A stretch of DNA of 64,000 nt from Candidatus Woesearchaeota archaeon. GTDB taxonomy: Archaea > Nanobdellota > Nanobdellia > Woesearchaeales > ARS49. Below are positions 24,871 to 55,102 of the stretch, one piece after another. The position numbers were made by a program, and so were the translations under genes. Location: positions 2,517 to 66,516 of the forward strand of contig JACQMS010000011.1 of assembly GCA_016203445.1 (NCBI GenBank), written 5' to 3'. Below the pieces are notes generated by a model, which saw nothing but the letters and a program-made list of their open reading frames with translations, made no database searches and had not been told where the DNA came from. Within the stretch, counting starts at the first letter, position 1; each line of letters starts with the position of its first letter.

Positions 24871-26120
24871 TGAACAGTCACCGTCCTCTCCTGATAATCA
24901 TACAAATCACCATCAGATGCAACAACGGAAAATTTGGTAGTGCTAGTAATCAATGTCAAAGTGTTCTGAATCGCAGGAGTTGAAGGAGTGTTAGAAACAA
25001 TACCAAAATTAACAACATCCTCATCAGGGTCGTGATAATACAAAGTTATAGGATTTAAAGGGGTTGTAACAGTTTGAGTAGATACCCCGCTACCAACATA
25101 ATACTTTCCGGTAGCGGTAATCTGCGCATTTTGAACAAATATTTTATAACCATTCTCAAATCTTTTGCCATCAAAAAAAGACAAGTCCGTCTTGACTAAA
25201 GCAGGATGCCTGTTCTGCCTAGCAAACCTAAACTTTACGATATCACCACGATAAGGCCTCTCAGAATCCCTAATCTCAACAATATCATCGCCACGATTTG
25301 CTGATACGGGATTTCTTATAACGCTTGAAGAAAACTTTTGAGTAATACCACCAATAACAACAGAAGTTTCCTTGCCATCAGGACTAAAAGTAATAATTTC
25401 CGCGTCATCAGAAGCTATCTGAAACGCGGCCTGCAACAAACCAGCAAGTCTTACAGGAACAGACAAAGTAAAAGAATCAGATTTTTTGACGTCGCCCAAT
25501 TTTGATGCTTCAACAATAATATCAACAACCAACTGAACATCCGAAGGATTCAAAAATATGCTAAACGATGGAACAGTTGCTGTAACAGATATACCTTCTG
25601 AAGAAAACTTGTCAAAATTTAAACAATTAGTAGACTTTCCAGACACATAATTTTTTAAATCGTTAATAACAGAATCATTAGAAGGTAGAACAACCTCACC
25701 AATCTTATATTTTTTTGTCAAATCCACAAGATTTGAAGTTCCAGGAGTGTTAGGAAAATCAATCCAAGGAAATTCAGGAGGAGATTTGTAAAAAACTTTA
25801 AAACCTCCAGCGGTGTAATCATCAGACAATCTCCTAATACCATAACCAATATTTCTAGACTCAAAAGACAAATAATTCTGAGGATTAATACTGCCTCCCT
25901 GAGCCAAAGATAATTCTACAGCACTCTCCAACAAACCCTGAAAGCAAGCACTAACGTAAGACTCCACAGAGTCCAAACCCTGAACATTTTTATTTTCAAC
26001 ACTCTTAATAGTTCCAGTAATGTAAATGCCAACAGAAATAGTTGCTACAAGAACAAGACCGATAAGTATGAAAACAGAAATTTGCGCCTTGACAAAATTG
26101 CGATAGGGGAAAAAAATCAT
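24867..26120 (-). CDS. Type IV pilin-like protein, 417 aa (class III signal peptide)
   Basis: MIFFPYRNFVKA|QISVFILIGLVLVATISVGIYI. 4-nt overlap with the downstream giant gene. Confidence 0.6.
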   Translation of the reverse strand: MIFFPYRNFVKAQISVFILIGLVLVATISVGIYITGTIKSVENKNVQGLDSVESYVSACFQGLLESAVELSLAQGGSINPQNYLSFESRNIGYGIRRLSDDYTAGGFKVFYKSPPEFPWIDFPNTPGTSNLVDLTKKYKIGEVVLPSNDSVINDLKNYVSGKSTNCLNFDKFSSEGISVTATVPSFSIFLNPSDVQLVVDIIVEASKLGDVKKSDSFTLSVPVRLAGLLQAAFQIASDDAEIITFSPDGKETSVVIGGITQKFSSSVIRNPVSANRGDDIVEIRDSERPYRGDIVKFRFARQNRHPALVKTDLSFFDGKRFENGYKIFVQNAQITATGKYYVGSGVSTQTVTTPLNPITLYYHDPDEDVVNFGIVSNTPSTPAIQNTLTLITSTTKFSVVASDGDLYDYQERTVTVQ

Positions 26121-26123
26121 AAA

Positions 26124-29100: not shown

Positions 29101-32100
29101 TTTTTGAAAGTTTCAGGAATTTTCAAAATTTTATCACTGCCACTAAGAGCTGAAGTAACAGCGTCCTGCTTTGTTTGAACAAACAATTTATCGAAAGAAA
29201 TGGGGTCAGAAATAAAAATGTCAGAACCAATATTAGAACTAGACAAACCCGTAAGAACATCGCCAGAAGTAACAGTAACTCTCAAACTGGAAGGAACTGG
29301 AGGAGTTACAGACTTCTCAAATGAAGATACCGCTCCGGGAAATTCCAACAAATTATCAACAGAACGAGTCACGGCGCCTTGAGATGCACCATCAACAAAA
29401 AATTCTGATTTTGTGGTTAGAGTTACAGGAATTTCAGGAATGCAGACAACAGATGAAGACGAAGCATAATCTGAATACCCAAAAACAGTCTCGTCTCCAG
29501 AAGTGCCAGTACTTGAGGTGTGATGATTCTCAACAAAAAACTTTTGAGTGTTAGAACTCTTTTCTGAAGGAATATCAATGGAAACTATTTGCCCATCATA
29601 AAGGCCCAAATATCCTGCATCAGAAATTTTAAGAAAATCTGAATAGTCATAATTACTGTAATCCCATCCTTGAATAGGGACGGAAAGATGTTCCACGCGC
29701 GCAATTACTGCACCCGCATCGTTCTTTATGACAGTAAAAGCTATAGGAACTTTCTCACTAAATGTATAATCATCGCCTTGACTATCTTTTTGGGTTACAG
29801 ATATCGTTGGCCAATCAAGCTTAACATTAAGAGCCGAACACCTGACTGGAGAGGCAACAGTCGCTTCAGAACCAGAGACGGTCATACCAATACCATTACC
29901 ATTAACGGTTGCAATGATTGGAGGAATAATACCACCAGAATAATCAAAAGATGAACCCTTGCCCTTAAACTCCAAACTAGTAATCGTTGAAGGACTAACA
30001 GGAAGTGAAGACGTTAAAGAATAAGTAATCTTGAGCTCAACATTTTTATCAATATGTTTTGGAGAAACTCCATCAATAGCCCTAGCAATATCACTAATAT
30101 CCGCGAGAACCAAATTATTTAGTTCAGGAGCTGTAATCTTTGCAGTGAAAGGAGTAATTCTTGAAAGCTCTGCGCGCTTAATATTCTCCGCTTCTGAAGG
30201 TGAAGGAACATAAAGATAAACGGGCGAGGACACTCCACCGGAAAGTTGTGAAGAAGTAATAATATTACCAGGAATATAATCAACACTTCCATAGGCATTT
30301 TTAGTTATAGGATTTGTTGACAATAAAACATTTTTTGATAAAGGAATTAAAACATAACTCTCAGCACCAGGAATAGTAGTCGAAGAAATCACTAACTGAT
30401 TACTATCAACAACGCCGGGTTTCAGATCTGCGGTTTTGATAACTCTCTTCACGGGAACGGCTCTGGCGTTAAAACACTCAATACCTGTCCAGGAAGCACC
30501 AGAACTAAGAGTTAAAGAAACAGAATTTACAAAATTGCCTGCAGGAATACTTGATGAATCAACAACATATTCAGCAGTACCATCACCATCATCATCAGGA
30601 CGCATAACCGCGGGTAAATTTTTTGAACCCGAAGAATCACCAACAAAACTAACGGCGGCGCTATAAAACAGAGGGGAAGAATGCGAACCAACAGCGTCAA
30701 TGTTCAAAATCAGAGAAGTGCAAGATTTAGGAGTTGGAAAAGTATAAGTTTTAGTTTCGGTAGAGGTTCCAGAAAAAGTAATAGAAGGATTAACAGAACC
30801 AGCAGTAACGCTTAAAGACTTAACGCCGAAAACAGCGATATCAAATTTTGATAACAACTCCTTGCTCACATCAGGAACGCCGCACATCAACCTATCAGAA
30901 CCATTAAGAAGTATTTGGTTATCGAAAAAGCAAGAACTCTTATAAACAGTACCGTTAACGGACTCAACCCACTCCCACTTTTTAGAACCATCGAGCTGAA
31001 CAACGTTATCACAAAACAACCTTTTATTATTCACAACCTCATTAGTATTACAATCAAGAGAGCCATCATCACCACAACAACCACTACCAAAAGTTACTAA
31101 ATCGTTAAAAACAAAACCAGTCTTAGTAATTGAAGCTCCAGGAGCAGTTTGAGCGTTCTCACAAGAATTCTTCCAAAAATCCCTATCATCCAAAAAATCG
31201 CAAACCCTATTCAAATCACTATCAAGACAAGAATAAACATAAACCTTGTCATCAAGCAAAGCATTACCACTAGAATCAACAAGCTTACCACCAGCCTTAA
31301 GATCAGAACCCCTATCAGTAATAATACTAGAAGGCTCAAAAGTATAAAACCAATCAACAGAAGGATAAGAAACAGGAGTTTTAGAAGAAAACCAGACCAT
31401 AACCTTAGGGTTAGAAGAGTTAAGCCATTGAATATTATGATCTTTAGAGTTTATAGCACTAATGGCTCCGGGAGAACCGGTACTGCCAGAGTTTTGACAG
31501 ATAGTTCCACCAGTGTAATAATCAGTTCTTGGAATCATTAAGTCCCTAACTGTTCCTAGAAATAGTGCATTATCATTGATAGATATCTTTGCCTTTTTAG
31601 GATTTAATGAGCTTGGAGAAATGGTTTTTCTTAATCGAAATGATACATCATTCAAGCTCATAGATGTCGCATCACCTAGTTCTGACATGAACCGGGCATT
31701 TGTAGCACTGATACTACTCAAAGGCAAGTCTAATGAATGCCACCCATAATATGAACCTCTACCCCAATCTTCTGTGAATACTTCGCCCCCATTATTGGGA
31801 AAATAAATGTGGATATTGGCATATCTTGATTTTTCTTTACACGGATCATCAGTATATGCTTTTACTCTCAAATTGATAACTTCTATGGGCGCATCAGAAA
31901 AAGTTACATCTAAAGATCCATACCTATTATCGCCCGTGCAGGCATTTCTTCCAACAGTAAAAAATCCTGACTTTCCCCAACAACTTCCCCCAACACTATA
32001 CTCTGATATATAATCTGCGTATATACTAAAAGATTCTTCAGCGGAACCCGCCAAGGAGAAAAAACATAAAAGTATGATTATACTAAATATCAAGACTGCT

Positions 32101-32120
32101 CTCTTAATGAACTTGCCCAT
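26124..32120 (-). CDS. Giant (1998 aa) secreted Cys-, Ser-, Gly-, Asn-rich protein; no obvious TM anchor
   Basis: Sec signal MGKFIKRAVLIFSIIILLCFFSLAGSA|EE. Uninterrupted 6-kb ORF, beta-rich composition, many N-x-S/T sequons. Confidence 0.8.
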   Translation of the reverse strand: MGKFIKRAVLIFSIIILLCFFSLAGSAEESFSIYADYISEYSVGGSCWGKSGFFTVGRNACTGDNRYGSLDVTFSDAPIEVINLRVKAYTDDPCKEKSRYANIHIYFPNNGGEVFTEDWGRGSYYGWHSLDLPLSSISATNARFMSELGDATSMSLNDVSFRLRKTISPSSLNPKKAKISINDNALFLGTVRDLMIPRTDYYTGGTICQNSGSTGSPGAISAINSKDHNIQWLNSSNPKVMVWFSSKTPVSYPSVDWFYTFEPSSIITDRGSDLKAGGKLVDSSGNALLDDKVYVYSCLDSDLNRVCDFLDDRDFWKNSCENAQTAPGASITKTGFVFNDLVTFGSGCCGDDGSLDCNTNEVVNNKRLFCDNVVQLDGSKKWEWVESVNGTVYKSSCFFDNQILLNGSDRLMCGVPDVSKELLSKFDIAVFGVKSLSVTAGSVNPSITFSGTSTETKTYTFPTPKSCTSLILNIDAVGSHSSPLFYSAAVSFVGDSSGSKNLPAVMRPDDDGDGTAEYVVDSSSIPAGNFVNSVSLTLSSGASWTGIECFNARAVPVKRVIKTADLKPGVVDSNQLVISSTTIPGAESYVLIPLSKNVLLSTNPITKNAYGSVDYIPGNIITSSQLSGGVSSPVYLYVPSPSEAENIKRAELSRITPFTAKITAPELNNLVLADISDIARAIDGVSPKHIDKNVELKITYSLTSSLPVSPSTITSLEFKGKGSSFDYSGGIIPPIIATVNGNGIGMTVSGSEATVASPVRCSALNVKLDWPTISVTQKDSQGDDYTFSEKVPIAFTVIKNDAGAVIARVEHLSVPIQGWDYSNYDYSDFLKISDAGYLGLYDGQIVSIDIPSEKSSNTQKFFVENHHTSSTGTSGDETVFGYSDYASSSSVVCIPEIPVTLTTKSEFFVDGASQGAVTRSVDNLLEFPGAVSSFEKSVTPPVPSSLRVTVTSGDVLTGLSSSNIGSDIFISDPISFDKLFVQTKQDAVTSALSGSDKILKIPETFKKVTVFNSGKSHDFVCTSKSVNDNSLTGLWIRECAMVDGGGSSGFASLSPKSLTKNIDGSLVGKSSSEKLYEIPSLTFSNVGTFHSSCSPNCDLVVKDGFNAPFLQGDGLISLRVVLNGLEKIGGGRGGSLTATDWSDFVGTLTFLSYNNGASSAKIWFEKPSATGGGVIKCSLNDGTKSSPVEVSQPWNIENSFTVGFSWGALNAECLLNGVVVEKSFASKLGPLQLFQFAVPGQKFSIGGILSSTSIDDNYKYSFDYYIDFYSSRNSEELYCSPFGRWSSELDSLSLNNKFACAEIKKSSQFLTSRDLDIGTVDSGNDRKFVWTGSKCCGEWGQMPEFYNDRLPLSSNKPDVNAFYQGKVDEDSGGCWNSTFVASGTSQLWGKISIDDNTRPSLLGGAVANINGQFVGCDIKDSGILSLTAGNANMRTSENLVAGYPACSMLNASLHTSVSSNPLKQYALCQPGGSGNGKWNIFNIPQDPLDVSNPVRGFDGSNPQIVGLVPVMVKLLSDNSVKELSNSPSTGKFSKDSVIGEELFNLSYFESVNKNYYSATGCCVKGYCWNGNSCVSDQKNDASLSLTKEKYRCETAANGDGVWTEITPKTSPDFGSTGFCPKAEHCFAKTPSGGSVVGNRTSWYESSDSWNKFWCANSGTFISFHSSTSSNPPRRDAFCDNGAWTSRATYLSSALYDFVKSSNDYELFCGSVKDVKSVSGVSAAIGSMGVDNSCKPVDGDSSRPDNCISTMCVLKRPNLPVIIGAVLNVPINKSTTDNSATFLKSLGSTNNNECLSIISQSRDEFMKCSNVGTKTLYYNPVKQLAIFSVDSSITKPSSSKSINDLFLSQSNTNIFNSAVGSPAENALYSTTVYQDINGLSVPSTTKDSSSKPLYSRADYSKVFLAKSSTTSGASIVYAILFEDVYIGVPSGGTPRSSFFAVYENAHPQIKENLDRYKSVLGVYNSGSNYYVVASEVNKFSTADTSWKDLTTKLRLIGGS

Positions 32121-32238: not shown

Positions 32239-32799
32239 ATGAAAAAAGTTATAGAATTTGTTGGAGTGCTGATTCTCATATTTGGAATTATTCTAGTTGC
32301 GGGAATATTCAAAAATTCAAACACCCCCATTACAGATTTTGAAATAAAATATAATGAATGTTTAAACATGCAACGAGCAGAATCTCACGTTGAAGCAATA
32401 CAGAAGAATAATCCAAAATTGTGCGATAATAGTTTTGACCCGGAAATGTGCAAAGCCAAAATTCTTGGAAATTCCAGTTTTTGTGAAGGATACGAAGGAG
32501 TGAAAAAAGATTATTGCAAAGGCACAATAACAGGAAATATAAATTTTTGTGGTACGAGTGGCACTTGTAAAGCGGAAGTTCTAAAAAATCCAGCATTGTG
32601 CTTAAGGAATAAAAGTGTTGAAGATGACTCTTTTAGCGACAGAGATTGTAAAATTCTTGCAGGAGAAAAAAGTGACTCTGAAGAATTCTGTTATGATACG
32701 ACGTGGAGTGACCTGGCATTTATGAAGTATGATTCATCACTATGTTCAAACATTCTGAACGATGATAGCAGAAAAAGTTGTGAAACAAAAGCACAATAA
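32239..32799 (+). CDS. Small N-terminally anchored protein with regularly spaced cysteines (about 10 Cys-containing repeats)
   Basis: MKKVIEFVGVLILIFGIILVAGIF TM helix, then C…C spacing of about 10-14 aa throughout. Divergently transcribed from the giant operon. Confidence 0.5.
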   Translation: MKKVIEFVGVLILIFGIILVAGIFKNSNTPITDFEIKYNECLNMQRAESHVEAIQKNNPKLCDNSFDPEMCKAKILGNSSFCEGYEGVKKDYCKGTITGNINFCGTSGTCKAEVLKNPALCLRNKSVEDDSFSDRDCKILAGEKSDSEEFCYDTTWSDLAFMKYDSSLCSNILNDDSRKSCETKAQ

Positions 32800-32829
32800 C
32801 TACCAATTCCATAATTTTTTAACTTCTAT

Positions 32830-32872
32830 ATCTCTCATTCCTAAAACTTTCAGCAATGCCTCAACATCATGC
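32830..32872. repeat. Direct repeat copy A (43 bp perfect core; similarity extends to about 100 bp with indels)
   Basis: atctctcattcctaaaactttcagcaatgcctcaacatcatgc is identical to 34322..34364. Overlaps the stop of the AAA+ ATPase gene. Confidence 0.75.
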
Positions 32873-34177
32873 CAAAAGCGCGAACAATGCAACAGGAATA
32901 ATTTTCACTTTTCCTTCAAGATTTACATCATTTTTTGATAATATAAATTTTTGTAGAAGATCTATTTTTGGAAAGTCTTTTGTTGAAACGCTTTCCTGCC
33001 ATTTAACTTCTATGCCCACGCCCTCACTAACAAAGTCCAGCTCTTTAGAACTTCTTAAGAATTTAACGCCAAGATTTTTTCTTCTCAAGCATTCTCCAAC
33101 AATACCCTCAACAATCTTAGGAACGTTTTCCTGTTTTTTTTCGGCGAGTCCCAAAGTTTTTAGTGATGCAATATGAAAAATAAATGGGTCTATAAAGTAA
33201 ACTTTTCTTTCTTTTCTAAAAAAAGGGGTTTTATCATACTCCTTCCAATAACTTCTTAAAACGTACAAACTTTCAAGAACTTCCAAATAATCACGAACAG
33301 TTATGTGCGAGGGGATTTCAACTTCTTTGGCAAGAGCACTTAAAGAAAATGATGAAGAGTACATTTTAACAACACCTTTCAGAACCGCACTTAAGGTGCG
33401 CTCACTAAGACCAATGCTTGAAATATCCCCAGCAATCCATTCCCAATATATTTGAAAAGTTTCATCCCGTATTTTTCCTTCTTCAATTAATTCATAAGCT
33501 GCACGCAAAAATCCGCCGCAATGAATGTAAAAATCGAATAGCTTGCTGATTTCTGTAATGTTGGGAAGAAGTTTTGGGGCACTCCTAACCATATTTTTAA
33601 TATTACTATGAAAAGAAATTGTTTTCTTCAAAGAACTGCTTCCGAAAACAACACAAAAATTCTTGAAATCAAGAGGTAAAAACTCTTTTATTTTTATCGG
33701 TCTGCCAGGAAATCTCTCTTTTTGAAGCTCCAAAGTTGTAGAACCAGTAAAATAAAAATTCATTCCTTCATTAAGATATTTAATTTCCAAAATTTGTTTC
33801 ACAGATCTTTCCCAATTATTAACAAAACTTATCTCGTCGAGAAAAATATATTTTCCTCCGGATTTTTTGAACAAAGAAACTATATCAATAATATCCTGAT
33901 AATTCATAACAAGATTACAAACAAAGTATAAACAATGCGTTGCAGGAACTTTTTTATCTAAGAGTTCTTTAATGCAAAGCTTCAAATAAGTGGTTTTTCC
34001 AGTTTGTCTGGGACCAAGAATTAAGTGATTGCCTTCTACAAATTTTGGAATGAATAAATGTTTTTTATTGACAGCATAACTAACTTGAGCATCCTTCTCA
34101 ATTTCAAGGATGTCACTCCACCAGGGGTTTTGGCTAACAACGGAATTCCAATCCATGAATTGATAACGAGATATCAC
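32867..34177 (-). CDS. AAA+ superfamily ATPase (COG1373 / DUF4143-type)
   Basis: Walker A LILGPRQTGKTTYLK, Walker B IFLDEISFV, 436 aa with the C-terminal DUF4143-like region typical of this archaeal family. Confidence 0.8.
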   Translation of the reverse strand: MISRYQFMDWNSVVSQNPWWSDILEIEKDAQVSYAVNKKHLFIPKFVEGNHLILGPRQTGKTTYLKLCIKELLDKKVPATHCLYFVCNLVMNYQDIIDIVSLFKKSGGKYIFLDEISFVNNWERSVKQILEIKYLNEGMNFYFTGSTTLELQKERFPGRPIKIKEFLPLDFKNFCVVFGSSSLKKTISFHSNIKNMVRSAPKLLPNITEISKLFDFYIHCGGFLRAAYELIEEGKIRDETFQIYWEWIAGDISSIGLSERTLSAVLKGVVKMYSSSFSLSALAKEVEIPSHITVRDYLEVLESLYVLRSYWKEYDKTPFFRKERKVYFIDPFIFHIASLKTLGLAEKKQENVPKIVEGIVGECLRRKNLGVKFLRSSKELDFVSEGVGIEVKWQESVSTKDFPKIDLLQKFILSKNDVNLEGKVKIIPVALFALLA

Positions 34178-34291
34178 AACTATATAAATGTTTCGATATC
34201 ACAATATCAAAACTTGAGTAAGTTATGATATTTTGATGTCAAAACGCTTTTGACATTTTTAACACTGAATTACACAAGACAAGCACGGCAC

Positions 34292-34774
34292 TCACCACTT
34301 CCACAAATTCTTGACTTCAACATCTCTCATTCCTAAAACTTTCAGCAATGCCTCAACATCATGCAAAGAGCGCAAATGCTCTGAAGATTCAGCAAAACTA
34401 CCTGCACGCATTTGAACTTTGTATTTTCTACACAAAGAGATATTCTGTCTGACACGACCAATAAGCACGGCCCTCTGCCTGCCAGAAGTTTCTATAATGG
34501 CCCTAATGTTAATAACCCAAAAAATATTTTTTTTGCTCATAATAACACAAATAACATGATTAAGACCAGACCTTCTATAATGCAAAGAGTCACGAGGCTC
34601 GATGTATTCAAAATCGTAAATGCCTTTAACGCCCCTCCTCTCCACGAGCGCGCGAACATCCTCACCAGCTTGAAAAACGCCCATTTTTGAAGACTCCTCA
34701 ACAAGAAAGCCAAGTCTTTCAGCCATCGAAACAATAACAGAATTTTTCTTCAAAATAATATCTTTATGAGTCAT
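34292..34774 (-). CDS. Hypothetical protein (160 aa). Its C-terminal ~25 codons lie inside the direct repeat.
   Basis: ORF with ordinary composition. A near-copy of its C-terminus (HDVEALLKVLGMRDIEVKKLWNW*) is readable out of frame just downstream of the ATPase gene. Confidence 0.45.
   Translation of the reverse strand: MTHKDIILKKNSVIVSMAERLGFLVEESSKMGVFQAGEDVRALVERRGVKGIYDFEYIEPRDSLHYRRSGLNHVICVIMSKKNIFWVINIRAIIETSGRQRAVLIGRVRQNISLCRKYKVQMRAGSFAESSEHLRSLHDVEALLKVLGMRDVEVKNLWKW
34322..34364. repeat. Direct repeat copy B (43 bp perfect core)
   Basis: Identical to 32830..32872. Encodes …HDVEALLKVLGMRD… near the C-terminus of ORF 34292..34774. Confidence 0.75.
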
Positions 34775-34789
34775 AGATTCATCACCGAT

Positions 34790-35317
34790 TCATTTATGAA
34801 CTATTTCTTTAGTAATATCGATAATATTTTTGCACAGGTTTTTCAATCTATTCATTTTTGGCCCATCTTTCAAAGAGGTTTGTGTGCCGTAAGTATATTC
34901 TTCTCTGAGGGTTATAACATGAAGCGTTTCGTCTTCAACATCAGAATATTCTAACAATTCTATAAATTTTTCATCAATATCAATTTTATTTTGCTCCTTA
35001 AGAAATCTTATTAAAGAAATTGTGCACGTCTGATTAGAAGATTCATAACCAAACTTTGCGGCGATGGCTAAGAAACAATGATAAACACAATAAAATCCTG
35101 CGGACGCAGACCAGTCAGAAAAACCTATTTCACTAAACTTATCAATACCTTCAAGATTGTGCTCTGCTTTGACTAAATGTTTTTTTGCATCAACAATTCT
35201 TAATCCCACCTTCAAAAGCCCCCTATGTTTCAGTCTCTTGTCCAGATTTTTACAGTCTTCAATTTCTTTCTGCGCTTTATTTAAGCACCATTCAACATGT
35301 TCAGAAGCTTGCGACAT
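34790..35317 (-). CDS. HEPN-domain protein (putative toxin of a HEPN–MNT pair)
   Basis: RIVDAKKH fits the Rx4-6H HEPN motif. Lies immediately downstream of, and overlaps by 17 nt, a nucleotidyltransferase gene (the canonical mntA–hepT order). Confidence 0.5.
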   Translation of the reverse strand: MSQASEHVEWCLNKAQKEIEDCKNLDKRLKHRGLLKVGLRIVDAKKHLVKAEHNLEGIDKFSEIGFSDWSASAGFYCVYHCFLAIAAKFGYESSNQTCTISLIRFLKEQNKIDIDEKFIELLEYSDVEDETLHVITLREEYTYGTQTSLKDGPKMNRLKNLCKNIIDITKEIVHK

Positions 35318-35891
35318 TTTTTAAAACCTCAACGTATTTGTTCTGCCCGCATAAAACAACTGCATTTTTTATAATATTAATAATTGCCTCATTCTTATTT
35401 TTTACATTTTCCAACAAATCTTTACAGGTCAATTTAATAACGTGAATTTTTTTGGGAAGAATATGCCCTTTCTTTTCTATTATGCTGTTTACTTCTTTGA
35501 TGTTTTTATTGTCCATTACAATAAGCACATCAATATCACGAGCACTAGAATAATCTTTAACCGCAGAGCCAAACAATGCCACAATGCGATTGCCCACAAA
35601 AAGTTCTTTAAACTCTTCTTTCCAACGCTTGAAATTATTCGCTTCATCTGCAAGGAGAAAAATTAAAAGTTGAATTGTGTACGTGTCATCAAAGTTTATT
35701 TTATAGATTATTGATTTTCCAATAGTCCTTTTTATAACTATGTTTGATTCGAAAAGCCTTTTGAGTAATTTTTGTGCTCCTACATGACTAATTTTAAGAA
35801 TTTTGCTTATAGAATTTGCATTATAAAATGCAGAATAATCTTTGAACAAAATAAGCAACGCTTCTCGTTCTTTGGAAGTCAGGTTTATCAT
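35301..35891 (-). CDS. Minimal nucleotidyltransferase (MNT) fused to an N-terminal winged-helix domain (putative antitoxin)
   Basis: ALFGSAVKDYSSARDIDVLIVMD (GS…D.D polymerase-beta NTase motif). N-terminal wHTH-like ~70 aa. Confidence 0.75.
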   Translation of the reverse strand: MINLTSKEREALLILFKDYSAFYNANSISKILKISHVGAQKLLKRLFESNIVIKRTIGKSIIYKINFDDTYTIQLLIFLLADEANNFKRWKEEFKELFVGNRIVALFGSAVKDYSSARDIDVLIVMDNKNIKEVNSIIEKKGHILPKKIHVIKLTCKDLLENVKNKNEAIINIIKNAVVLCGQNKYVEVLKNVASF

Positions 35892-45824: not shown

Positions 45825-46904
45825 CTAATCTGACTTCCACCTAAGAAACGCGCCGATGCCACCAAGACCGTCAAGAATACTGCCACCCTCAAGCTCCGAA
45901 GAAACAATCATAATACTCCCATTAAAACTTTCAACAAGCGACAACAAATCCTCGACATCACGCCTCTTTTCCGCGCGGTCCTTAGAAATAATTTTTGTTG
46001 AAACAACAATTTTTTCGACCGCGCCCTGCTGAGCCAAAAATTTAACATTAACAAAACCATAAGAAGCCCTTCCGCCCTTATGAATAAGACTTAAAAAATT
46101 TTCAACAACAGACAACTCCTCACTAGCGCGAACGTCTCTAAGAACAGACTTCAAATCATCCTTCTTAAGAACTTCAAGAAGCCCGCGAACACCATCATCA
46201 GAACAAGTAGCAAAAACTGTTCTACTCTTCAAATCTTTGGGCAAGTGCTTAGAAAACTCGTCCTTCCAAAAACCAGGAGAGCCAACAACAATATTACTAA
46301 CACGGATAGTTTTCAACAAATCCTCCAATTTTTTAACAACCAAAGGAAAAAATTCCTTAAAAGAAACATTCTCATACTTTTTTTGAACATCACCACGAAG
46401 CTTCGCAAGAACAGAATACCCCCCACTATTAGTCAGTGCAAAAAGAGCAGAATCCCTATCAATAATAAGAATTAGAACAGGAACGACTCCGGACTTCAGA
46501 CAATCACTAAGAACAGACTCGTCAACAGGACCCCAATTCTTAATCACCGTCAAAACATCACCGATAGATGCAGTAATGGACTGATGACTGCCCTTAGGAA
46601 CATCATTATTATCATCACAAGTTACACCAGAAATTCTCAAAGAATTATCAGAAATATCAGACTTCAAAACGCTAAGAGTTGCAGTAAAAGTAGTCCTGAC
46701 AATATCAGAACCCTTAAGAACTTTTCTAGAAGCACGACCCACAACAATATCCCCCTCCTGCAAAATCCGGTGAATATACCAAAAATCTTCAGGAACGGTA
46801 AGCAACAATTTAGCAGAATTATGCTTCCTATCCCTAGCAAGAAGTTTCATAGACAAGCAATCAGTATAACATTTAAAAACATTTATATAATGTTTAGCCA
46901 ACAA
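45825..46904 (-). CDS. pelA: Pelota/Dom34 (mRNA surveillance factor)
   Basis: eRF1-like three-domain layout, 359 aa, no GGQ motif. Confidence 0.7.
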   Translation of the reverse strand: MLAKHYINVFKCYTDCLSMKLLARDRKHNSAKLLLTVPEDFWYIHRILQEGDIVVGRASRKVLKGSDIVRTTFTATLSVLKSDISDNSLRISGVTCDDNNDVPKGSHQSITASIGDVLTVIKNWGPVDESVLSDCLKSGVVPVLILIIDRDSALFALTNSGGYSVLAKLRGDVQKKYENVSFKEFFPLVVKKLEDLLKTIRVSNIVVGSPGFWKDEFSKHLPKDLKSRTVFATCSDDGVRGLLEVLKKDDLKSVLRDVRASEELSVVENFLSLIHKGGRASYGFVNVKFLAQQGAVEKIVVSTKIISKDRAEKRRDVEDLLSLVESFNGSIMIVSSELEGGSILDGLGGIGAFLRWKSD

Positions 46905-48028
46905 TGACCAAAATGACGTTCAAAAAGAGGAAGAATTCTCAAGCAACAGGAGCAACAATGCTGATACTTGTGCTCATAGGAATATTTCTGCTATTCGCAA
47001 TGGTGACAAATCCAGAAAAATTTCAAAACACTATGAGGGGAAGCGCACAAACGGCAGGAGTAATGAAAGAGTACACGATAGGAGTTCTACAAGGAGGAAC
47101 AAACGATGACAACACAAAAACAATCCAAGGGTTCACACTACAATCACTCCAAAACACTAAAGTACTGGCAAGATTTCCAGATGTCAGCGCAAGCAATGGA
47201 ATATTTAGAAGAAGCGACAATACAAAAACGTTTATGCTAGAAGACCCAAAAAACACAGACAACATATTCCTAAGTTTTACTGCAACAGAAAAAAAAGGAA
47301 CACTAGCAATAATACTTAACGACAACGCATTATTCAATGGGATTTTAGAAGAGACAAATCCAGCACCAATAAAAATACCTGCGCAATACATAAAAAAAGA
47401 CAACTCGCTAAAATTCTCAACAGAAAGCGGATTCCTGCAGAGCGCGGCGTACACACTAAAAGATGTATCATTAATAGGAACAGTAACAGATATAACGCCA
47501 CTGACGAAAAAATCAACATTCACAATAACTCAAGAAGAATACGAAATCACGACAGGAGCAACACTAAAATATTTCGCGAGATGCGATGAAGAAACAATAA
47601 TGGAAATAATTCTGAACAAAAATACAGTAAAAAATGGAACTATTACATGCGAAGAAGAAACAACAAACAATATACCAAAAAGCTCGCTAAAACAAGGAGC
47701 CAACACAATAACGTTCACGGCACAAAACAAGAACACCACAAAGATGAACAATATAAAAATAGAACTATCATCCACAAACACAAACAAGTTTGTAACAAGC
47801 TTCAACATACAAACAAGGCCAAGATCACTAAAATTAGAGTTAGAACTACCTGAACAAGGAGAAAAAATATTTAACGGAGTATTCAATGCAAAACCATTCC
47901 ATATAAGGACATCAGAATTCATAGGAATAATAGACCTAACTAATAGCACGACAACAGGAACAAACTATCTGGAAATAACCCCCGAAGGAACGGTCAACGT
48001 GCCAAAAGCAAGAATAAGAATCAGCTAA
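46904..48028 (+). CDS. N-terminally anchored extracellular protein (374 aa, Thr/Asn-rich)
   Basis: Basic N-terminus plus a hydrophobic helix (ATMLILVLIGIFLLFAMV). Remainder is hydrophilic and beta-rich. Confidence 0.5.
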   Translation: MTKMTFKKRKNSQATGATMLILVLIGIFLLFAMVTNPEKFQNTMRGSAQTAGVMKEYTIGVLQGGTNDDNTKTIQGFTLQSLQNTKVLARFPDVSASNGIFRRSDNTKTFMLEDPKNTDNIFLSFTATEKKGTLAIILNDNALFNGILEETNPAPIKIPAQYIKKDNSLKFSTESGFLQSAAYTLKDVSLIGTVTDITPLTKKSTFTITQEEYEITTGATLKYFARCDEETIMEIILNKNTVKNGTITCEEETTNNIPKSSLKQGANTITFTAQNKNTTKMNNIKIELSSTNTNKFVTSFNIQTRPRSLKLELELPEQGEKIFNGVFNAKPFHIRTSEFIGIIDLTNSTTTGTNYLEITPEGTVNVPKARIRIS

Positions 48029-48103
48029 ATGTTGACAGTTCGACAAAGCTTTAAAAAAGGCAGGTTCTTAAACAGGCAATAAAGCAAAAAAAGAGGAGTA
48101 CAA

Positions 48104-49984
48104 TTGAGCAATACAACAATTGCAAGCAAGTCAAAAGGAGGAATAGGACTGTTTTTCCTAATAACAATAATAGTTCACGCAGCAGACATTCTAATAAGAT
48201 TAACGGGCGAAGTAAAAATTTTTGATCCACTATTTATTATGCTACACTTCGTACTAATTCCAGGAATGGGGTGGCTATTAATAAAAAGTGTCAGAAACAA
48301 GGAAGGAATAGAAACTCTAGGAATATTCGCGCTGTGGGCGTACATAATACCATTAGTGTTAGTAATACCATTCATAGAAGAATTGGTAAAAAACACTCTA
48401 GGAATATTCGCGTACACTGCAATACTATTAGCAATGCCCGCATGGTTCTTCTTCATAATGACAAGAGATGAAAATGAAAAACCGGAATGGCTAAACAAAT
48501 TTTCTGCAGGGTACATGTTCATATGGTTTATCGTGGTAGCAACCACAATAATATGGCCAGCAATAAGCAACACCGGAGAAGGAATAGCATTCGGCTCCGA
48601 ATTTCACGCGGGCGACGCGATGGTTGAATCAGCAGGAGAATTCGTGACTATAATAGGACAAGTAATAAGCGCGGCGACAGCAGAAGTAGAAAACGTAAAA
48701 CAAGAAATAAAAGGCAACACGACACAAAAAGATGCATCAAGAAAAATAAACCCATCAGAATTTGAAGCAATAATAGATTGGAGCGATGAAGGAATAGTAA
48801 CACTCGGAGGAGCGCCATTCAAAACAACTGACGAGCTATCAGTAATAGGAACACTAAGAACGAAAACGTTCTCTGAAGACAAAGAAATAAATGTACAAAT
48901 ATCCTGCTTCACGCCAGGAGCAACAAACGACAAAATAACACTAACACCAGAAACATACGAAGCAATAGGAAGAAACATACAAAAAGAAAAAGTGACATGC
49001 ACAGTTTCAAAAAACACGCTAAACCCCGGAACGCACAAAGTAACACTAAAAGCAGACTACTCAATGGAAGCAATAGCGAAACTAGAATTCACGACGGGAA
49101 AAGAAGAATTATTCAGCCTAAACAAGTACGGAGAGTATACACCAAAAACGGCGGAGCTATCAAAAGCAATAATTCCATCAACAGTAACAAGCTCTAAAAC
49201 ACCGCTAAAAGTTGATATAGCGCTACCAGAAAAGTATGTAGTACTAAACGATAAAAGAGAAAACATAAAATTCACGCCAGACATAATAATATCAAGAAGC
49301 ACAGTTAAAGGTGAGGGAAAGGTTAAAGGAATAATAATAGTCGCACCCAAAAGCTTCACACTGGAAACAATAAGGCCATACAGTGAAAAAATAGTGAAAT
49401 CAAACTGCGAATATTTAAGAGAAGAATATCCATACACAGAAATGCCATGCGACAATACGTTTGAGACGGTATACTCAATAAATACCGGAGATCTCAGGAT
49501 AACAACCAATGCAAGAATATCAACAACGTTCACACTGCACAAGGATTCATGGGAAAGATTTCTTGGAGGAAGCTCATTCACACAAAAGGCATTTTATGCA
49601 CTAGCAAAATATGATTACACGATAAACGAATCAAAAGATGTAAGAGTTGAAGGAGAGACAATAACTGACGGAGGACGCACTGTAAACTCAAACATACCAG
49701 TGATAATATCGGGGCCGACAATACAATCATCAACAAACAATGCAAGAATAGAAATAGAAACAAACGTTGACACAAGAATAACAATAAAATATTGGAAAGG
49801 TAACGAAGAATCAAAAAGCACCACAAAAATAAGCAATTATGAAAGAAATCATAGAATAGATATTTCAAACCTAGAGCCGGGAACAAAATATTCAGTATTC
49901 ATTGACATAGTTGACAGAAAAAATAAAAGAAATGTACAATCATTAGAATTCACAACGAACACCGCGCCAGGAGCACAACCATGA
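48104..49984 (+). CDS. Polytopic membrane protein (~5 TM) with a large extracellular Thr-rich domain ending in an FN3/Ig-like module
   Basis: Five hydrophobic segments in the first ~170 aa. C-terminal …LEPGTKYSVFIDIVD… resembles FN3. Confidence 0.55.
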   Translation: MSNTTIASKSKGGIGLFFLITIIVHAADILIRLTGEVKIFDPLFIMLHFVLIPGMGWLLIKSVRNKEGIETLGIFALWAYIIPLVLVIPFIEELVKNTLGIFAYTAILLAMPAWFFFIMTRDENEKPEWLNKFSAGYMFIWFIVVATTIIWPAISNTGEGIAFGSEFHAGDAMVESAGEFVTIIGQVISAATAEVENVKQEIKGNTTQKDASRKINPSEFEAIIDWSDEGIVTLGGAPFKTTDELSVIGTLRTKTFSEDKEINVQISCFTPGATNDKITLTPETYEAIGRNIQKEKVTCTVSKNTLNPGTHKVTLKADYSMEAIAKLEFTTGKEELFSLNKYGEYTPKTAELSKAIIPSTVTSSKTPLKVDIALPEKYVVLNDKRENIKFTPDIIISRSTVKGEGKVKGIIIVAPKSFTLETIRPYSEKIVKSNCEYLREEYPYTEMPCDNTFETVYSINTGDLRITTNARISTTFTLHKDSWERFLGGSSFTQKAFYALAKYDYTINESKDVRVEGETITDGGRTVNSNIPVIISGPTIQSSTNNARIEIETNVDTRITIKYWKGNEESKSTTKISNYERNHRIDISNLEPGTKYSVFIDIVDRKNKRNVQSLEFTTNTAPGAQP

Positions 49985-50898
49985 GAAAAAATATCACCCG
50001 AATTTTAACGATAATACTATTAATATTTTTGATATTGCTAACTGCATCATGCGGTCTACAAACGAGAACAACACAAGTAGAAAAAGGAACTGAAGGTTTA
50101 TACACAAAAATATTTGCAGGAAACAACAACATATTGTACGAAGATACAACAGGAACAATAAATGTAGACGTAGAAAATAGAGGTGCCGGAGAAGTCAATC
50201 ATGGAATACTAGTACTAAACGTTCCAGAACAATTCATAGAAATACCCAGAGACCAACAAAAAGAATTATTATTAGCAGGAAGAAGCATAGACCAGCCGGT
50301 AGGAGAACAAATAACATACACGTTCAACGTTAAAATAAGAGAGATAACAAGCGAGAAAAAAGATATACCAACAATAATATCAGCAAGCACGTGCTATCAG
50401 TACAAAACAACAGCGAGCCCGACAGTATGCATACAAATGCCTGACGACTCAAAACCTGAATGCAAAGAAAGAACAGTACTCCTTGGAGGCCAAGGAGGAC
50501 CATTAGCCATAACAAGCGTTGAAACAACAACAATTCCATCAGAAGGAGACATGGTTATGCCAATAATAACGATAAAAATACAAAACAAAGGCAGGGGAAT
50601 AGTATTAGAGCCGAGCACAGTGCTGAACGCGTGCTTAAGCACGAGCGAGAAAGCTCAAGAAAACAAAGCATTAATAGAAGCATTCATAGACCACAAAGGA
50701 AGAATGCTAACGTGCAACAAAGAAAAAACACAAGGAGAAACAAGCATAAAAATAGATGAAGGAACAACAACAATAACATGCAAGTACGATCAAGGAATAC
50801 CTAAAAGCGAAGGAACTCACACATCCCAAATAATTATAAACCTAGCATACGGGTACTATGATATCACGACGCAAAAAATCGTGATAAAAAAGACGTGA
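49981..50898 (+). CDS. Putative lipoprotein (lipobox LTASC), paralog of 50903..51820
   Basis: MRKNITRILTIILLIFLILLTAS|CG. Shares CY(Q/E)Y…C…LG(G/A)QG(G/A)P… and C-terminal …YGY… blocks with the next gene. Confidence 0.55.
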   Translation: MRKNITRILTIILLIFLILLTASCGLQTRTTQVEKGTEGLYTKIFAGNNNILYEDTTGTINVDVENRGAGEVNHGILVLNVPEQFIEIPRDQQKELLLAGRSIDQPVGEQITYTFNVKIREITSEKKDIPTIISASTCYQYKTTASPTVCIQMPDDSKPECKERTVLLGGQGGPLAITSVETTTIPSEGDMVMPIITIKIQNKGRGIVLEPSTVLNACLSTSEKAQENKALIEAFIDHKGRMLTCNKEKTQGETSIKIDEGTTTITCKYDQGIPKSEGTHTSQIIINLAYGYYDITTQKIVIKKT

Positions 50899-50902
50899 TA
50901 AA

Positions 50903-51820
50903 ATGAAAAAAAAATATGTACTAACAATAATCGCGGTTTTAACAGTGCTGGCACTATCAGGGTGCACGACAGGAAATAGAGGCGAAGGAACTGGGGGGGC
51001 GGGCATTGGAGGCAACGGGTTAAGCATAAAATGGACACCAAACGTGCCACCAAACACAATATATGAAGACCAACCATTCGAGATAGCAGTAGAAGTAGAA
51101 AATTTAGGAGCGAACGAAATAGGCGCGAGCACTGACAGAATATACTTTTCAGGATTCTCAAGAGAAAGAATAAGCGGAGATTTTTATAACGGAATACAAA
51201 TACCAAAATTGGACGCGCAAACAAGATACAACAGCGGAGGCAAAGATTTAGTAAGCATAACAGGAACAATAGCAGACCTAGAAACACAAAACGAGTACCA
51301 AATACCACTAACGGCAACAGCATGCTACGAGTACTCAACAGAAGCCGGAGGAACAATATGCATAGACCCAGACCCGTTCACAACAAGCACAAGAAAGAAA
51401 AGCTGCACGCCAGGAAGCGTAACACTAGGAGCCCAAGGAGCGCCAGTAAAAATAACAGGAGTACAAACAGAACCAGCAAGCGGTAAAACAAGACTAACAA
51501 TAACAATATCAAACACTGGAGGAGGAGACGTGTACAAAAGAGAAGCACTAGCATACTGCAATCCTTACAACACACAAAGAGCATCATACAACAGCCTAAA
51601 CATTGTTCAAGTAGAAGAAGTAAGCATAGGAGGAACAACAATACAATGCACAGGACTAGGTAATGACAAAACACTAAGACTAATAGGAGGCAGAGGGCAA
51701 ATGAGGTGCACATACGAAACAACACAAACAACAGAATTCACAGACCAACTCAAAATAAAAATAAGATACGGATACAGAACAAGCATACAAAAAAATGTAG
51801 CAATACTACCAACAGATTGA
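50903..51820 (+). CDS. Putative lipoprotein (lipobox LSGC), paralog of 49981..50898
   Basis: MKKKYVLTIIAVLTVLALSG|CTTG. Same 305-aa length and conserved Cys/aromatic blocks as its neighbour. Confidence 0.6.
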   Translation: MKKKYVLTIIAVLTVLALSGCTTGNRGEGTGGAGIGGNGLSIKWTPNVPPNTIYEDQPFEIAVEVENLGANEIGASTDRIYFSGFSRERISGDFYNGIQIPKLDAQTRYNSGGKDLVSITGTIADLETQNEYQIPLTATACYEYSTEAGGTICIDPDPFTTSTRKKSCTPGSVTLGAQGAPVKITGVQTEPASGKTRLTITISNTGGGDVYKREALAYCNPYNTQRASYNSLNIVQVEEVSIGGTTIQCTGLGNDKTLRLIGGRGQMRCTYETTQTTEFTDQLKIKIRYGYRTSIQKNVAILPTD

Positions 51821-51826
51821 GAATGT

Positions 51827-53751: not shown

Positions 53752-54351
53752 TTGATAAGATTGGTGTTTAACATGAACGAAGCAATAAAAGGACATTTAC
53801 GACAGTATCCAGTTTTTACTGTGAAAGATTTAGCAGGCACACTCGATAAACCCGCAGAATATGCATCTTTACAGACATACCGATGGAAGAAAAAGAATAT
53901 CATTCACGAAGTCGAAAAAGGAAAATATTCTTTCGAAGAAGACCCATTTGTTATCGCTTCGTGGATCTTGTGGCCGAGCTATATTTCTGGATGGGCGGCA
54001 CTGCAATACTATCATCTTACGGAACAATTGCCTTTCACAATTCAAGTTATGACAACGAGAAAAAGAAACAAAAAAAGTATCAAGTATGGAAACGCAAAGA
54101 TAGAATTTACGACAGTAAAACCGTCATTTTTGAAAGGATTTCAACAAATATTATATCATCAAAAAGAAATCTTCATTGCAGAAAAAGAAAAAGCAATCGT
54201 AGATGCGGTAGCAACGAAAAGAATGTCATTGAACGAATGTACAAGCATCATTCAACACAATAAAAATAATTTAAATCTTAAAAGATTATTTTCTTATGCT
54301 ACCATGATCAAAGGACTCTCAAAAAAAATAAAGGCGGGCATACATGATTAA
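53752..54351 (+). CDS. AbiEi-like antitoxin/transcriptional regulator
   Basis: ~200 aa, sits immediately upstream of and overlaps (8 nt) an AbiEii/DUF1814 NTase gene. N-terminal wHTH-like region. Confidence 0.5.
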   Translation: MIRLVFNMNEAIKGHLRQYPVFTVKDLAGTLDKPAEYASLQTYRWKKKNIIHEVEKGKYSFEEDPFVIASWILWPSYISGWAALQYYHLTEQLPFTIQVMTTRKRNKKSIKYGNAKIEFTTVKPSFLKGFQQILYHQKEIFIAEKEKAIVDAVATKRMSLNECTSIIQHNKNNLNLKRLFSYATMIKGLSKKIKAGIHD

Positions 54352-55102
54352 AAAAGAAGAATTATTACGAATAGCAAACCTCAAAGGACTCCCGTCCCGT
54401 TTTGCGGAACTGGATTATCTTCAAGATATTGCACTTTTAGGAATATGCCGAGAATTTGGAAATGCTCTTATATTCAAAGGAGGAACTTGCTTGTACAAGA
54501 TACACCACCTCAACAGGTTTAGTGAAGACTTGGACTTTACTGCTCAAAAAAAGTTTAAACCAAAAGACTTTTTTGCTCGTTTACCACACATATTTTTACT
54601 TTTTCACATTACATGTACTGTTACAATAGAAAGATTTCAGAACAATATCAATGTATGCTTGAAATTGAATGGCCCTCTTTATGATGGAAGCAAAGAAAGC
54701 AGAAGCAGACTTCTACTAAATATTAGTTCACGAGAAAAAGTTTTTATGCCACTCTTACAAATTTCTTACGCTTCATTATACCAAGAAGTTCGCCCATTTG
54801 ATATATACTCCATGGATGAGAGAGAGATATTAGCCGAAAAAGTACGTGCAGTATACCAAAGAGAAAAAGCCCGAGATGTATATGATATCTGGTATTTAAT
54901 CACCGTGAAAAAGATTTCGCTTGATTTGAAACTGGCACAGAGAAAGTTATCTTCTGTTCACGCACTATTTGGAAAAGATACATTCCTCAAAAATATAAAA
55001 GAGAAAAAGAACAGTTGGAATACTGATTTATCAGCACTAATATCAGGACAACTTATCCCTTTTACAGAAGCAGAAAAAGAAATTCAAAAGTATATAGAAT
55101 AA
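54344..55102 (+). CDS. AbiEii/AbiGii-family nucleotidyltransferase toxin (DUF1814)
   Basis: ALIFKGGTCLYKI…RFSEDLDF matches the family's F-K-G-G-T-[AC]-L … R-x-S-x-D-[LI]-D-[FL] NTase signature. Confidence 0.75.
   Translation: MIKKEELLRIANLKGLPSRFAELDYLQDIALLGICREFGNALIFKGGTCLYKIHHLNRFSEDLDFTAQKKFKPKDFFARLPHIFLLFHITCTVTIERFQNNINVCLKLNGPLYDGSKESRSRLLLNISSREKVFMPLLQISYASLYQEVRPFDIYSMDEREILAEKVRAVYQREKARDVYDIWYLITVKKISLDLKLAQRKLSSVHALFGKDTFLKNIKEKKNSWNTDLSALISGQLIPFTEAEKEIQKYIE

Follow-up and report, generated by a model that had tools for sequence, protein, structure and literature searches.

Hydrolases that are anchored to a membrane and open a wall locally from outside the cell are familiar from Gram-positive conjugation systems (the PrgK/TcpG type) and from the membrane-bound lytic transglycosylases. 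Woesearchaeota are tiny, uncultured and probably symbiotic archaea, among the most widespread uncultured ones, and are thought to depend on partners; we know of no identified partner or contact machinery for them, nor, more generally, of any machinery for archaeon-bacterium episymbiosis or predation. The literature connects large lytic transglycosylases of Woesearchaeota with attaching to bacteria or attacking them (PMC8204110, PMC9723730, PMC12352652), and those of Woesearchaeota and Pacearchaeota have been described as single genes (PMC8204110, PMC9723730). DPANN archaea are predicted to be rich in lipobox lipoproteins, and both lipoproteins and the lipidation enzyme AliA, the latter “with gaps,” have been reported in them (PMC12462473).

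The locus compared with these systems here is a cluster of four plus-strand ORFs, G1 to G4, read between pelota and scpB in the window (the whole 64,000-nucleotide stretch of Woesearchaeota DNA that was analyzed). An ORF check agreed with the predicted positions and common direction of all four, and Pfam identified both flanking genes, pelota by its eRF1_1, eRF1_2 and eRF1_3 domains and scpB by ScpB. The short spacing that had been described is also there: 75 nt between G1 and G2, a 4-nt overlap (ATGA) of G2 with G3, and 4 nt between G3 and G4. Through this overlap G3 is translationally coupled to G2, which itself starts at TTG downstream of a strong Shine-Dalgarno sequence, GAGGAG. The most likely pelota start (minus strand) is the ATG at 46850, rather than the TTG at 46904 of the ORF list, which leaves a divergent intergenic region of 53 nt (46851..46903) with a TATA-like TTTATATAA at 46882-46890, a candidate box for G1, and an A/T box at 46872-46879, a candidate for pelota; promoter roles for both would follow from the archaeal TATA consensus. 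The G1 box lies about 14-22 nt upstream of the ATG, suggesting a leaderless or near-leaderless mRNA. Judging from co-direction, the G2/G3 overlap, the G2 Shine-Dalgarno sequence and the TATA-like box before G1, the four genes appear to form one operon, and conserved synteny in other genomes supports this as well.

All four products are predicted to be extracytoplasmic or membrane-anchored, as originally proposed, with TM segments in G1 and G2 and lipoboxes in G3 and G4; the conserved Cys pairs of the ectodomains also point to an extracytoplasmic location. Beyond generic folds (CARDB/Ig-like, FN3, weakly lectin-like), no product matched a characterized family. The description of the products as Thr/Asn-rich holds for Thr (10.7-14.7%, vs. 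3.5-9.3% in other plus-strand genes), partly because the plus strand of the genome is A-rich, and for Asn only in G1 (8.8%). An extreme strand-specific A-over-T skew is a feature of this genome.

Relatives of the cluster are organized in the order pelota (minus strand), G1, G2, p1, p2, p3 in about 50 species of Woesearchaeota/Nanoarchaeia, with approximately 35 complete loci among 50 species-level loci, all from Woesearchaeota/Nanoarchaeia-type records. By gene content, the window cluster is a reduced form of this five-gene Woesearchaeota operon: G3 and G4 are the orthologues of p1 and p2, and the third lipoprotein, p3, is missing from both the window genome and its sister genome. Of the paralogues, which number two to four per operon, p3 is apparently the best conserved, and its loss in this lineage shows that the module tolerates major reduction. 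The 4-nt overlap of G2 with p1 recurs in L001, L007, L009 and L004, and is kept between lineages that are only ~40% identical. The operon is specific to Woesearchaeota (DPANN) and vertically inherited. In every lineage it occupies a fixed position among housekeeping genes, with no sign of mobility, and no relatives were found in viral contigs. The original prediction's broad suggestion of a surface interaction module pointed in the right direction, but it missed the conservation of the operon, the ancient paralogy of the lipoproteins and the loss of p3, and the hydrolase domains carried by some relatives.

G1 (46904..48028, plus strand; 374 aa) is a predicted surface protein with a single N-terminal TM segment: hydropathy places one such segment within residues 11-40, and together with conservation defines an anchor at about residues 18-36 (46955..47011). 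The family keeps the end of this helix and a juxtamembrane motif, FYILFLPPEER, in which Y31, I32, F34, P36 and R40 are nearly invariant (35 sequences), and an orthologue occupies the same position in ~35 loci. The ectodomain consists of repeated modules of ~90-100 aa with the pattern “LNG...G.N.I.F”; repeat a (~100-190) matches repeat b (193-292) with an hhalign probability of 97% (E 2e-11), and b matches c weakly (E 0.0056). A PDB sequence search with G1 gave no match. The modules resemble galactose-binding-like or CBM domains, a resemblance suggested by this motif and by sub-threshold Pfam matches to CBM_35, CBM-like and GH2_N2 in 5 of 35 family members. A type IV pilin-like identity for G1, with a class III signal peptide, was considered and rejected: its N-terminus, KRKNSQATGATMLILV..., has no [KR]-[GA] site before the hydrophobic stretch, and the “RGQ” of some orthologues lies ~10 residues ahead of the hydrophobic core.

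G2 (48104..49984, plus strand; 626 aa) is a polytopic membrane protein whose sequence is that of hypothetical protein HY483_01365 of Candidatus Woesearchaeota (100% identity), with ~25 full-length homologues in a library of 1.84-billion representatives. The layout first proposed for it, five TM segments followed by an ectodomain and an FN3 tail, is borne out by hydropathy, an AlphaFold2 model (mean pLDDT 79.6) and an FN3 match. The TM domain (residues 11-156, 48134..48571), defined by hydropathy, AlphaFold2 and conservation, has about five TM-like segments by hydropathy and modeled helices at 12-33, 42-59, 66-86, 89-109 and 128-155; the N-terminus would be inside and the C-terminus outside. 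Conservation is weak here: apart from a few prolines, the only recurrent residues are D28 and R32, at the outer end of TM1. This argues for a role in anchoring or assembly and against one as enzyme or transporter. The conserved ectodomain (residues 215-520, 48746..49663; from AlphaFold2 and conserved columns) is modeled as beta-rich (pLDDT mostly 84-93), with a strand of ~25 residues after each of two sandwich regions; it has conserved cysteines at C268, C299, C435 and C449 and a terminal Y-D-Y strand, the sole sequence link to the lipoproteins (“Y[DG]Y”; hhalign E 0.0085-0.012). Comparison with class II fusogens (HAP2/archaeal fusexin) was not sustained, their elongated three-domain beta architecture finding no match over the whole ectodomain. 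The C-terminal module (residues 527-617, 49682..49954), which fills the accessory position that varies across the family, is an FN3 domain both by profile match and by its beta-sandwich fold.

One rival explanation starts from a weak NCBIfam match (E 0.0037) between G2 residues 87-155 and a pilin-like protein of a Mycoplasma ICE, and from a layout of TM segments plus peptidoglycan hydrolase, seen in some relatives, that recalls the Gram-positive conjugation hydrolases: the operon might encode a secretion, pilus or conjugation apparatus, with G2 VirB6/VirB2-like or PrgK-like and G1 pilin-like. The match occurs in 1 of 37 family members, however, the flanks of every locus are free of ATPases, VirB4/VirD4 and prepilin peptidases over ~8-10 kb, and the N-terminus of the window G1, the fixed chromosomal position and the absence of viral-contig relatives all speak against it; this reading is largely refuted and retains very little probability.

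The position held by FN3 in the window G2 is occupied by peptidoglycan hydrolase domains in some other members of the family. SLT domains are found in L011 (E 2.6e-9), L047 (1.3e-8), P0104 (3e-10) and P0140 (6.6e-13), with intact ES and GLMQ-type motifs in L011 (AESQW...VGLMGV) and L047 (QESSM...IGLMQV), and Amidase_2 domains in P0145 (1.4e-24) and P0159 (1.1e-29); two further matches, to SLT in L058 (0.003) and to a glucosaminidase-like domain in L050 (5e-4), are weak and below cut-off. All are C-terminal to the conserved G2 ectodomain. Such fusions are a minority among the 47 G2 relatives scanned (six above the Pfam cut-off plus the two weaker ones), and about half have no accessory domain. 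In the L065 operon an SLT-tipped G2 is accompanied by G1 and four lipoproteins, and in L063 an amidase-tipped G2 by p1. A Pfam search of the window G2 found no SLT match; the window version is hydrolase-free.

G3 (49981..50898; ORF, BLASTP and orthology, group p1) and G4 (50903..51820; ORF, group p2), both on the plus strand and 305 aa long, are predicted lipobox proteins. The G4 signal peptide (50903..50965; MKKKYVLTIIAVLTVLALSG, C21; from the ORF, hydropathy and the model) ends in a canonical lipobox, ALSG|C; the lipobox originally assigned to G3 (signal peptide 49981..50052; MRKNITRILTIILLIFLILLTAS, C24; from the ORF, hydropathy and the conserved Cys), LTAS|C, fits only a relaxed PROSITE-type pattern, with T rather than strict [LVI] at -3. 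The lipobox Cys does not vary among 44 family members, and in all 16 orthologues inspected the Cys is present in boxes of the L/I/V-x-[GAS]-C type. G3 and G4 are 27% identical over 262 columns (BLASTP, E 5e-14), and the blocks CY[EQ]Y...C, LG[AG]QG[AG]P and a C-terminal YGY are real features of their alignment. Their paralogy is thus sound, but not the idea of a recent tandem duplication: as members of two orthologous groups, they are ancient paralogues. The G4 model has a helix at 4-19, a disordered, Gly-rich tether at 22-34, and two predicted Ig-like beta-sandwiches with very long joining strands, the N-terminal sandwich being CARDB-like; there are six conserved Cys in the mature protein, and the Pfam score for CARDB (PF07705) exceeds the gathering threshold.

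Archaeal and Gram-positive solute-binding proteins are typically anchored by a lipobox, and the lipoproteins could in principle be the substrate-binding components of a transporter, an outcome that the original prediction named as refuting it. Neither profile searches nor fold connected any cluster product with a transporter substrate-binding family: the lipoproteins are predicted to fold as all-beta, tandem Ig-like proteins rather than with the alpha/beta fold of binding proteins, and no transporter, permease or ATPase gene was found in or beside the operon at any locus examined. Fold and gene context together refute this explanation, whose remaining probability is close to nil.

The same gene context bears on a different form of nutrient acquisition, in which the module would capture free cell-wall debris (murein or glycans) from its surroundings and cut it to supply uptake systems, without contact with a living host. 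The hydrolase fusions and lectin-like repeats would serve this purpose too, and Woesearchaeota have been described as relying on building blocks from outside (PMC11606122, PMC9723730). It is nevertheless rather improbable, given the lack of neighboring transport genes, a poorly conserved G2 TM domain without transporter-like polar motifs, and the absence of any enzyme from the version in the window genome.

The reading favored here, at a little below an even chance, is that the operon encodes a lineage-specific, membrane-anchored, multi-protein surface module that contacts the bacterial cell wall, with a hydrolase-free version in the window. G2 would be its base, with a five-TM anchor bundle, a helical stalk modeled at low confidence, a tandem beta-sandwich ectodomain with disulfide bonds and, at the tip, a distal domain that can be swapped; G1 would be a signal-anchored protein of repeated lectin-like beta-sandwich modules, and p1 and p2 (p1-p3 or four in relatives) lipid-tethered tandem Ig-like proteins assembling around G2. 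By presenting its tip to bacterial peptidoglycan, the module would attach to the wall of a bacterial host or prey and open it locally: that the tip is a lytic transglycosylase in several lineages and a MurNAc-L-Ala amidase in others, with a weak glucosaminidase-like match in one, suggests that it faces this target. The reduced window version, with an FN3 tip, two lipoproteins and no hydrolase, would serve only for binding or adhesion. The missing hydrolase domain and the generic nature of FN3 modules count against the wall-contact reading, as do the minority share of hydrolase fusions in the family, the sub-threshold matches and motif behind the lectin-like assignment of G1, and the tolerance of the module for losing p3. 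A more specific proposal, that the operon is a conserved Woesearchaeota host-contact apparatus in which a heteromeric complex of G2 base, G1 lectin and two to four lipoproteins docks on bacteria and breaches murein where SLT- or amidase-tipped, is considered unlikely.

The fixed place of the operon among housekeeping genes is at least as compatible with a basic role in the envelope as with a device for contacting hosts. Tandem Ig-like domains are typical of archaeal S-layer proteins, and G1, G2 and the lipoproteins might form or anchor a cell coat, as an S-layer-like lattice or its anchor, with hydrolases as secondary add-ons. This would agree with a nearly universal, vertically inherited operon among core genes, with the predicted lipid or TM anchors, and with the lack of a hydrolase in most G2 proteins. 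On the other hand, the number of paralogues varies, from two to four, and nothing here supports the S-layer association suggested in the original prediction: searches of Pfam and NCBIfam found no S-layer domain in the cluster products; N-glycosylation sequons are strongly depleted (5 observed vs. 16.8 expected, with none of 2000 shuffles that low), unlike in many archaeal S-layer glycoproteins; and separately annotated S-layer genes are among the top transcripts in Woesearchaeota transcriptomes (PMC11606122). S-layers are reported to be made of one or two proteins (PMC5744192), against which five different subunits would be unusual. A structural envelope or S-layer-associated role is doubtful, but it is the chief competitor of the wall-contact reading.

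Four “hypothetical proteins” become a defined operon conserved lineage-wide, and metaproteomics, cryo-ET and complex prediction now have definite targets in G1, G2 and p1-p3. In the case of contact with bacterial walls, tip type (FN3, SLT, amidase or none) could mark lifestyle genomically; a host-contact apparatus would give molecular access to archaeon-bacterium episymbiosis or predation; and should the module rather be a basic scaffold of the envelope, it would define the surface of Woesearchaeota cells.

Among known systems, the large membrane-bound lytic murein transglycosylases of Woesearchaeota and Pacearchaeota (Castelle et al., 2021, PMC8204110; Vigneron et al., 2022, PMC9723730) come from the same organisms. 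The G2 relatives L011, L047, P0104 and P0140 (699-1332 aa) are extracellular SLT proteins of this sort, in which the conserved G2 TM domain and ectodomain precede SLT; at least some of the transglycosylases noted previously are probably elaborated versions of one operon component. The window G2 differs in having FN3 in place of SLT, and no description of the partner genes (G1 and two to four lipoproteins), the operon or the SLT-free majority was found in those two papers. With archaeal lipobox lipoproteins (Haloferax volcanii, AliA/AliB pathway; PMC12462473), G3 and G4 have in common a signal peptide, lipobox, invariant Cys and flexible tether; their lipoprotein status is predicted, the strict [LVI] at -3 is lacking in G3, and the mature domains, ~280 aa long with six conserved Cys and two Ig-like sandwiches, belong to a family not described before. 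With CARDB- or DUF11-type tandem Ig-like surface proteins only one domain, of ~100-120 aa, aligns, and no known protein has the whole architecture, with its long connecting strands and cysteine pattern. The likeness to PrgK/TcpG-type hydrolases is a functional analogy only, not one of sequence or fold, in an operon without secretion ATPases; because archaea lack murein, the wall to be opened would be that of another organism.

The four co-directional genes between pelota and scpB can tentatively be read as an operon for a putative membrane-rooted surface complex that contacts the bacterial cell wall, present in the window genome in a binding-only version. All four ORFs of the original prediction are there on the plus strand: the signal-anchored G1 (46904-48028, 374 aa); the membrane protein G2 (48104-49984, 626 aa), whose TTG start codon lies 6 nt downstream of GAGGAG; and two lipobox proteins of 305 aa each, G3 (49981-50898) and G4 (50903-51820). 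The overlap expected between G2 and G3 is seen as ATGA, a gap of 4 nt separates G3 from G4, and the flanking genes named in that prediction are indeed pelota and ScpB. The longest pelota ORF (45825-46904, minus strand) begins at a TTG abutting the G1 start codon; its true start is probably the ATG at 46850, where the conserved protein begins (MKLLARD...), so that the two genes would not abut but would be separated by a 53-nt divergent promoter region. Inside this region a TTTATATAA box lies 14-22 nt upstream of the G1 ATG. A leaderless G1 mRNA, with genes downstream that overlap or have Shine-Dalgarno sequences, would be consistent with a single operon; the promoter and terminator scan was of the sigma-70 type, uninformative for an archaeon.

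Close homologues are scarce (six matches for G4, two for G2), and G2 is 100% identical to a protein annotated as hypothetical in a Candidatus Woesearchaeota MAG. A lipoprotein profile search returned 45 clusters of ~305-330 aa, none annotated, and an exhaustive HMMER search with G2 found ~25 full-length relatives along with many unrelated FN3 repeat proteins. Scanning one genome per GTDB species recovered 50 loci, in all of which ORFs were called and then searched with one HMM per component. Common to ~35 complete loci is the block pelota (minus strand), G1, G2, p1, p2 and p3 (plus strand), p1 to p3 being orthologous groups of lipoproteins; the RFC small subunit gene is usually next. Operon-bearing records are titled Woesearchaeota, Nanoarchaeia or Nanoarchaeota. 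Many other such public MAG records (L013-L015, L019, L023-L024 and others) bear the title “uncultured Methanosarcinales archaeon”, and another that of “Candidatus Binatia bacterium”; given the same synteny, a wrong taxonomic label or mis-binning of the contig is the probable reason. A viral or mobile origin was rejected, the operon having no relatives in IMG/VR and a fixed chromosomal position.

A near-universal operon located among housekeeping genes might also encode a basic envelope or S-layer-associated scaffold, the strongest rival explanation. We consider it unlikely: five distinct subunits are involved, no S-layer domain was found in the products, N-glycosylation sequons are strongly depleted (5 observed vs 16.8 expected), and Woesearchaeota S-layer genes are annotated separately and highly expressed (PMC11606122).

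Hydropathy places about five TM-like segments of G2 within residues 1-156, and its AlphaFold2 model (pLDDT 79.6) has five TM helices, a long helix at low confidence (170-202), a well predicted beta ectodomain (223-516) and an FN3 domain. Across the family the TM domain shows little conservation, with D28 and R32 alone recurring; conservation is good in the ectodomain (C268, C299, C435, C449, P367, G403, Y503), and this combination favours an anchor role over a catalytic membrane domain. Two other readings were considered: G2 as an Lsp-like aspartyl protease for lipoprotein processing found no support (a single, partly conserved Asp, D28, in 29/37 members, in a poorly conserved TM domain), and a VirB2/pilin-like TM domain was rejected (an NCBIfam match in just one of 37 members). 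Secretion or pilus apparatus and fusogen readings were likewise tried and did not hold.

The C-terminal position that the FN3 domain occupies in the window differs between family members. In a set of 37 species-level G2 proteins it is FN3-like in about ten, weakly glucosaminidase-like in one and an SLT domain in three, two of these above the Pfam cut-off; the SLT assignment is backed by NCBIfam MltC-type matches in two members, and the remaining proteins have no accessory domain match. Catalytic ES and GLMQ-type motifs are retained in the SLT domains of two loci (L011, L047). Ten more distant relatives include two with SLT (E 3e-10 and 6.6e-13) and two with Amidase_2 (E 1e-24 and 1e-29). Alongside these SLT and Amidase_2 versions the operon again encodes G1 and lipobox paralogues. 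That one scaffold bears peptidoglycan hydrolases of two clearly distinct types, plus a weakly matched third, points to bacterial murein as the structure that the G2 tip would meet, as judged from domain matches. The same hydrolases could serve a surface module for scavenging debris, an explanation that seems improbable given the absence of a linked transporter. In the preferred reading, G1, G2 and the lipoproteins would assemble into one membrane-rooted complex touching the wall, and the version in the window, having no hydrolase tip, would only bind.

The two lipoproteins of the window share 27% identity (BLASTP, E 5e-14), and the sequence blocks quoted for them in the original prediction are real in the alignment. 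All-against-all BLASTP scores divide the lipoproteins into three orthologous groups, with G3 in p1 and G4 in p2. The supposed tandem duplicates are therefore paralogues, but not products of a recent duplication: the event was ancient, and the window carries a reduced version of the operon. Conservation appears to be highest in the missing group, p3, the majority of profile matches looking p3-type in consensus. It occurs in nearly all other lineages (for example L007 10001-10933 and L002 9422-10357) and is absent from the window genome and from its sister (L004/L013, 84-91% identity); a tblastn search found no third lipoprotein elsewhere in the 64-kb window. In both genomes the convergent scpB ends within ~6 nt of G4 (51821-51826 in the window) and the RFC small subunit gene is located elsewhere; its displacement and the absence of p3 indicate a rearrangement downstream of G4. 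One low-GC lineage (L065) has four lipoprotein paralogues.

The lipobox Cys and five more Cys columns are invariant in 44 lipoprotein sequences, and mature G4 has six Cys, sufficient for three disulfide bonds. Its AlphaFold2 model (pLDDT 86.4, pTM 0.79) runs from a signal helix through a disordered Gly-rich tether to a CARDB-like sandwich (40-123), a 23-residue strand region, a second sandwich (182-272) and a 24-residue terminal strand. A PDB sequence search with the lipoprotein profile gave no matches, and a substrate-binding protein reading was tested and set aside. In the models the G2 ectodomain has a similar layout, sandwich-long strand-sandwich-long strand; profile similarity is limited to the final Y[DG]Y strand (hhalign E ~0.01), with no broader match beyond it. 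The G2 ectodomain and the lipoproteins may share an origin, in which case the ectodomain would be a fourth paralogue joined to an anchor.

G1 has a single TM-like segment by hydropathy, and in its family the TM end and a juxtamembrane motif are conserved. Two of its modules are clearly mutually homologous (hhalign 97%, E 2e-11), with weak similarity in a third. Sub-threshold matches to galactose-binding-like carbohydrate-binding modules in 5/35 members suggest, but do not establish, that the modules are lectin-like. No relation of G1 to G2 or to the lipoproteins was detected, and its profile had no matches in a PDB sequence search.

Another feature of the window is that its whole plus strand is extremely A-rich, whichever way the genes point: at third codon positions, plus-strand genes have 55% A and 15% T, and minus-strand genes 54% T and 17% A (coding sense). 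Per-gene third-position AT skew reaches ~+/-0.6-0.8, its sign constant over 64 kb. The same skew, of either sign, occurs in a subset of other Woesearchaeota loci (L004/L013, L021, L022, L026, L033, L035, L036, L040), many others being without it. It suggests that mutation is very strongly asymmetric, in a way tied to replication or repair. The resulting T-poor coding strand opens long stop-free antisense ORFs, in the window for example at 47023-47523 and 49057-49581 (minus strand), and such frames explain the annotation of the sister assembly (GCA_964373285.1; L004 5979-6914), where two antisense minus-strand ORFs of 216 and 92 aa were called in place of the plus-strand G1 orthologue (374 aa). 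The skew also shifts the composition of surface proteins, towards Thr if they are encoded on one strand and towards Ser if on the opposite one. Three consecutive large minus-strand ORFs at 19891-32120 (1659, 417 and 1998 aa) are Ser-rich (11-15%), have no Pfam match at E <= 0.001 and may be giant DPANN surface proteins; the 1998-aa ORF has 8 N-X-S/T sequons vs 26 expected. For the G1-G4 ectodomains (46904-51820), none of 2000 shuffles gave a sequon count as low as 5, despite high Asn and Thr. Two segments, 32239-35891 and 53752-55102, have third-position skew of ~0 to +0.3, vs +/-0.6 elsewhere. The second, a toxin-antitoxin-like pair (Pfam AbiEii at 54344-55102, preceded by an overlapping 199-aa ORF), is missing at the equivalent site in the sister genome L004 and was probably acquired recently.

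Large murein transglycosylases are known from Woesearchaeota and have been read as tools to attach to or attack bacteria (PMC8204110, PMC9723730, PMC12352652); in this literature we found no description of the operon, the partner proteins or the hydrolase-free majority. Neither the folds nor the anchor types are unusual; what is apparently undescribed is the protein families, the conserved operon that holds them together, and a murein-hydrolase tip that can be swapped.
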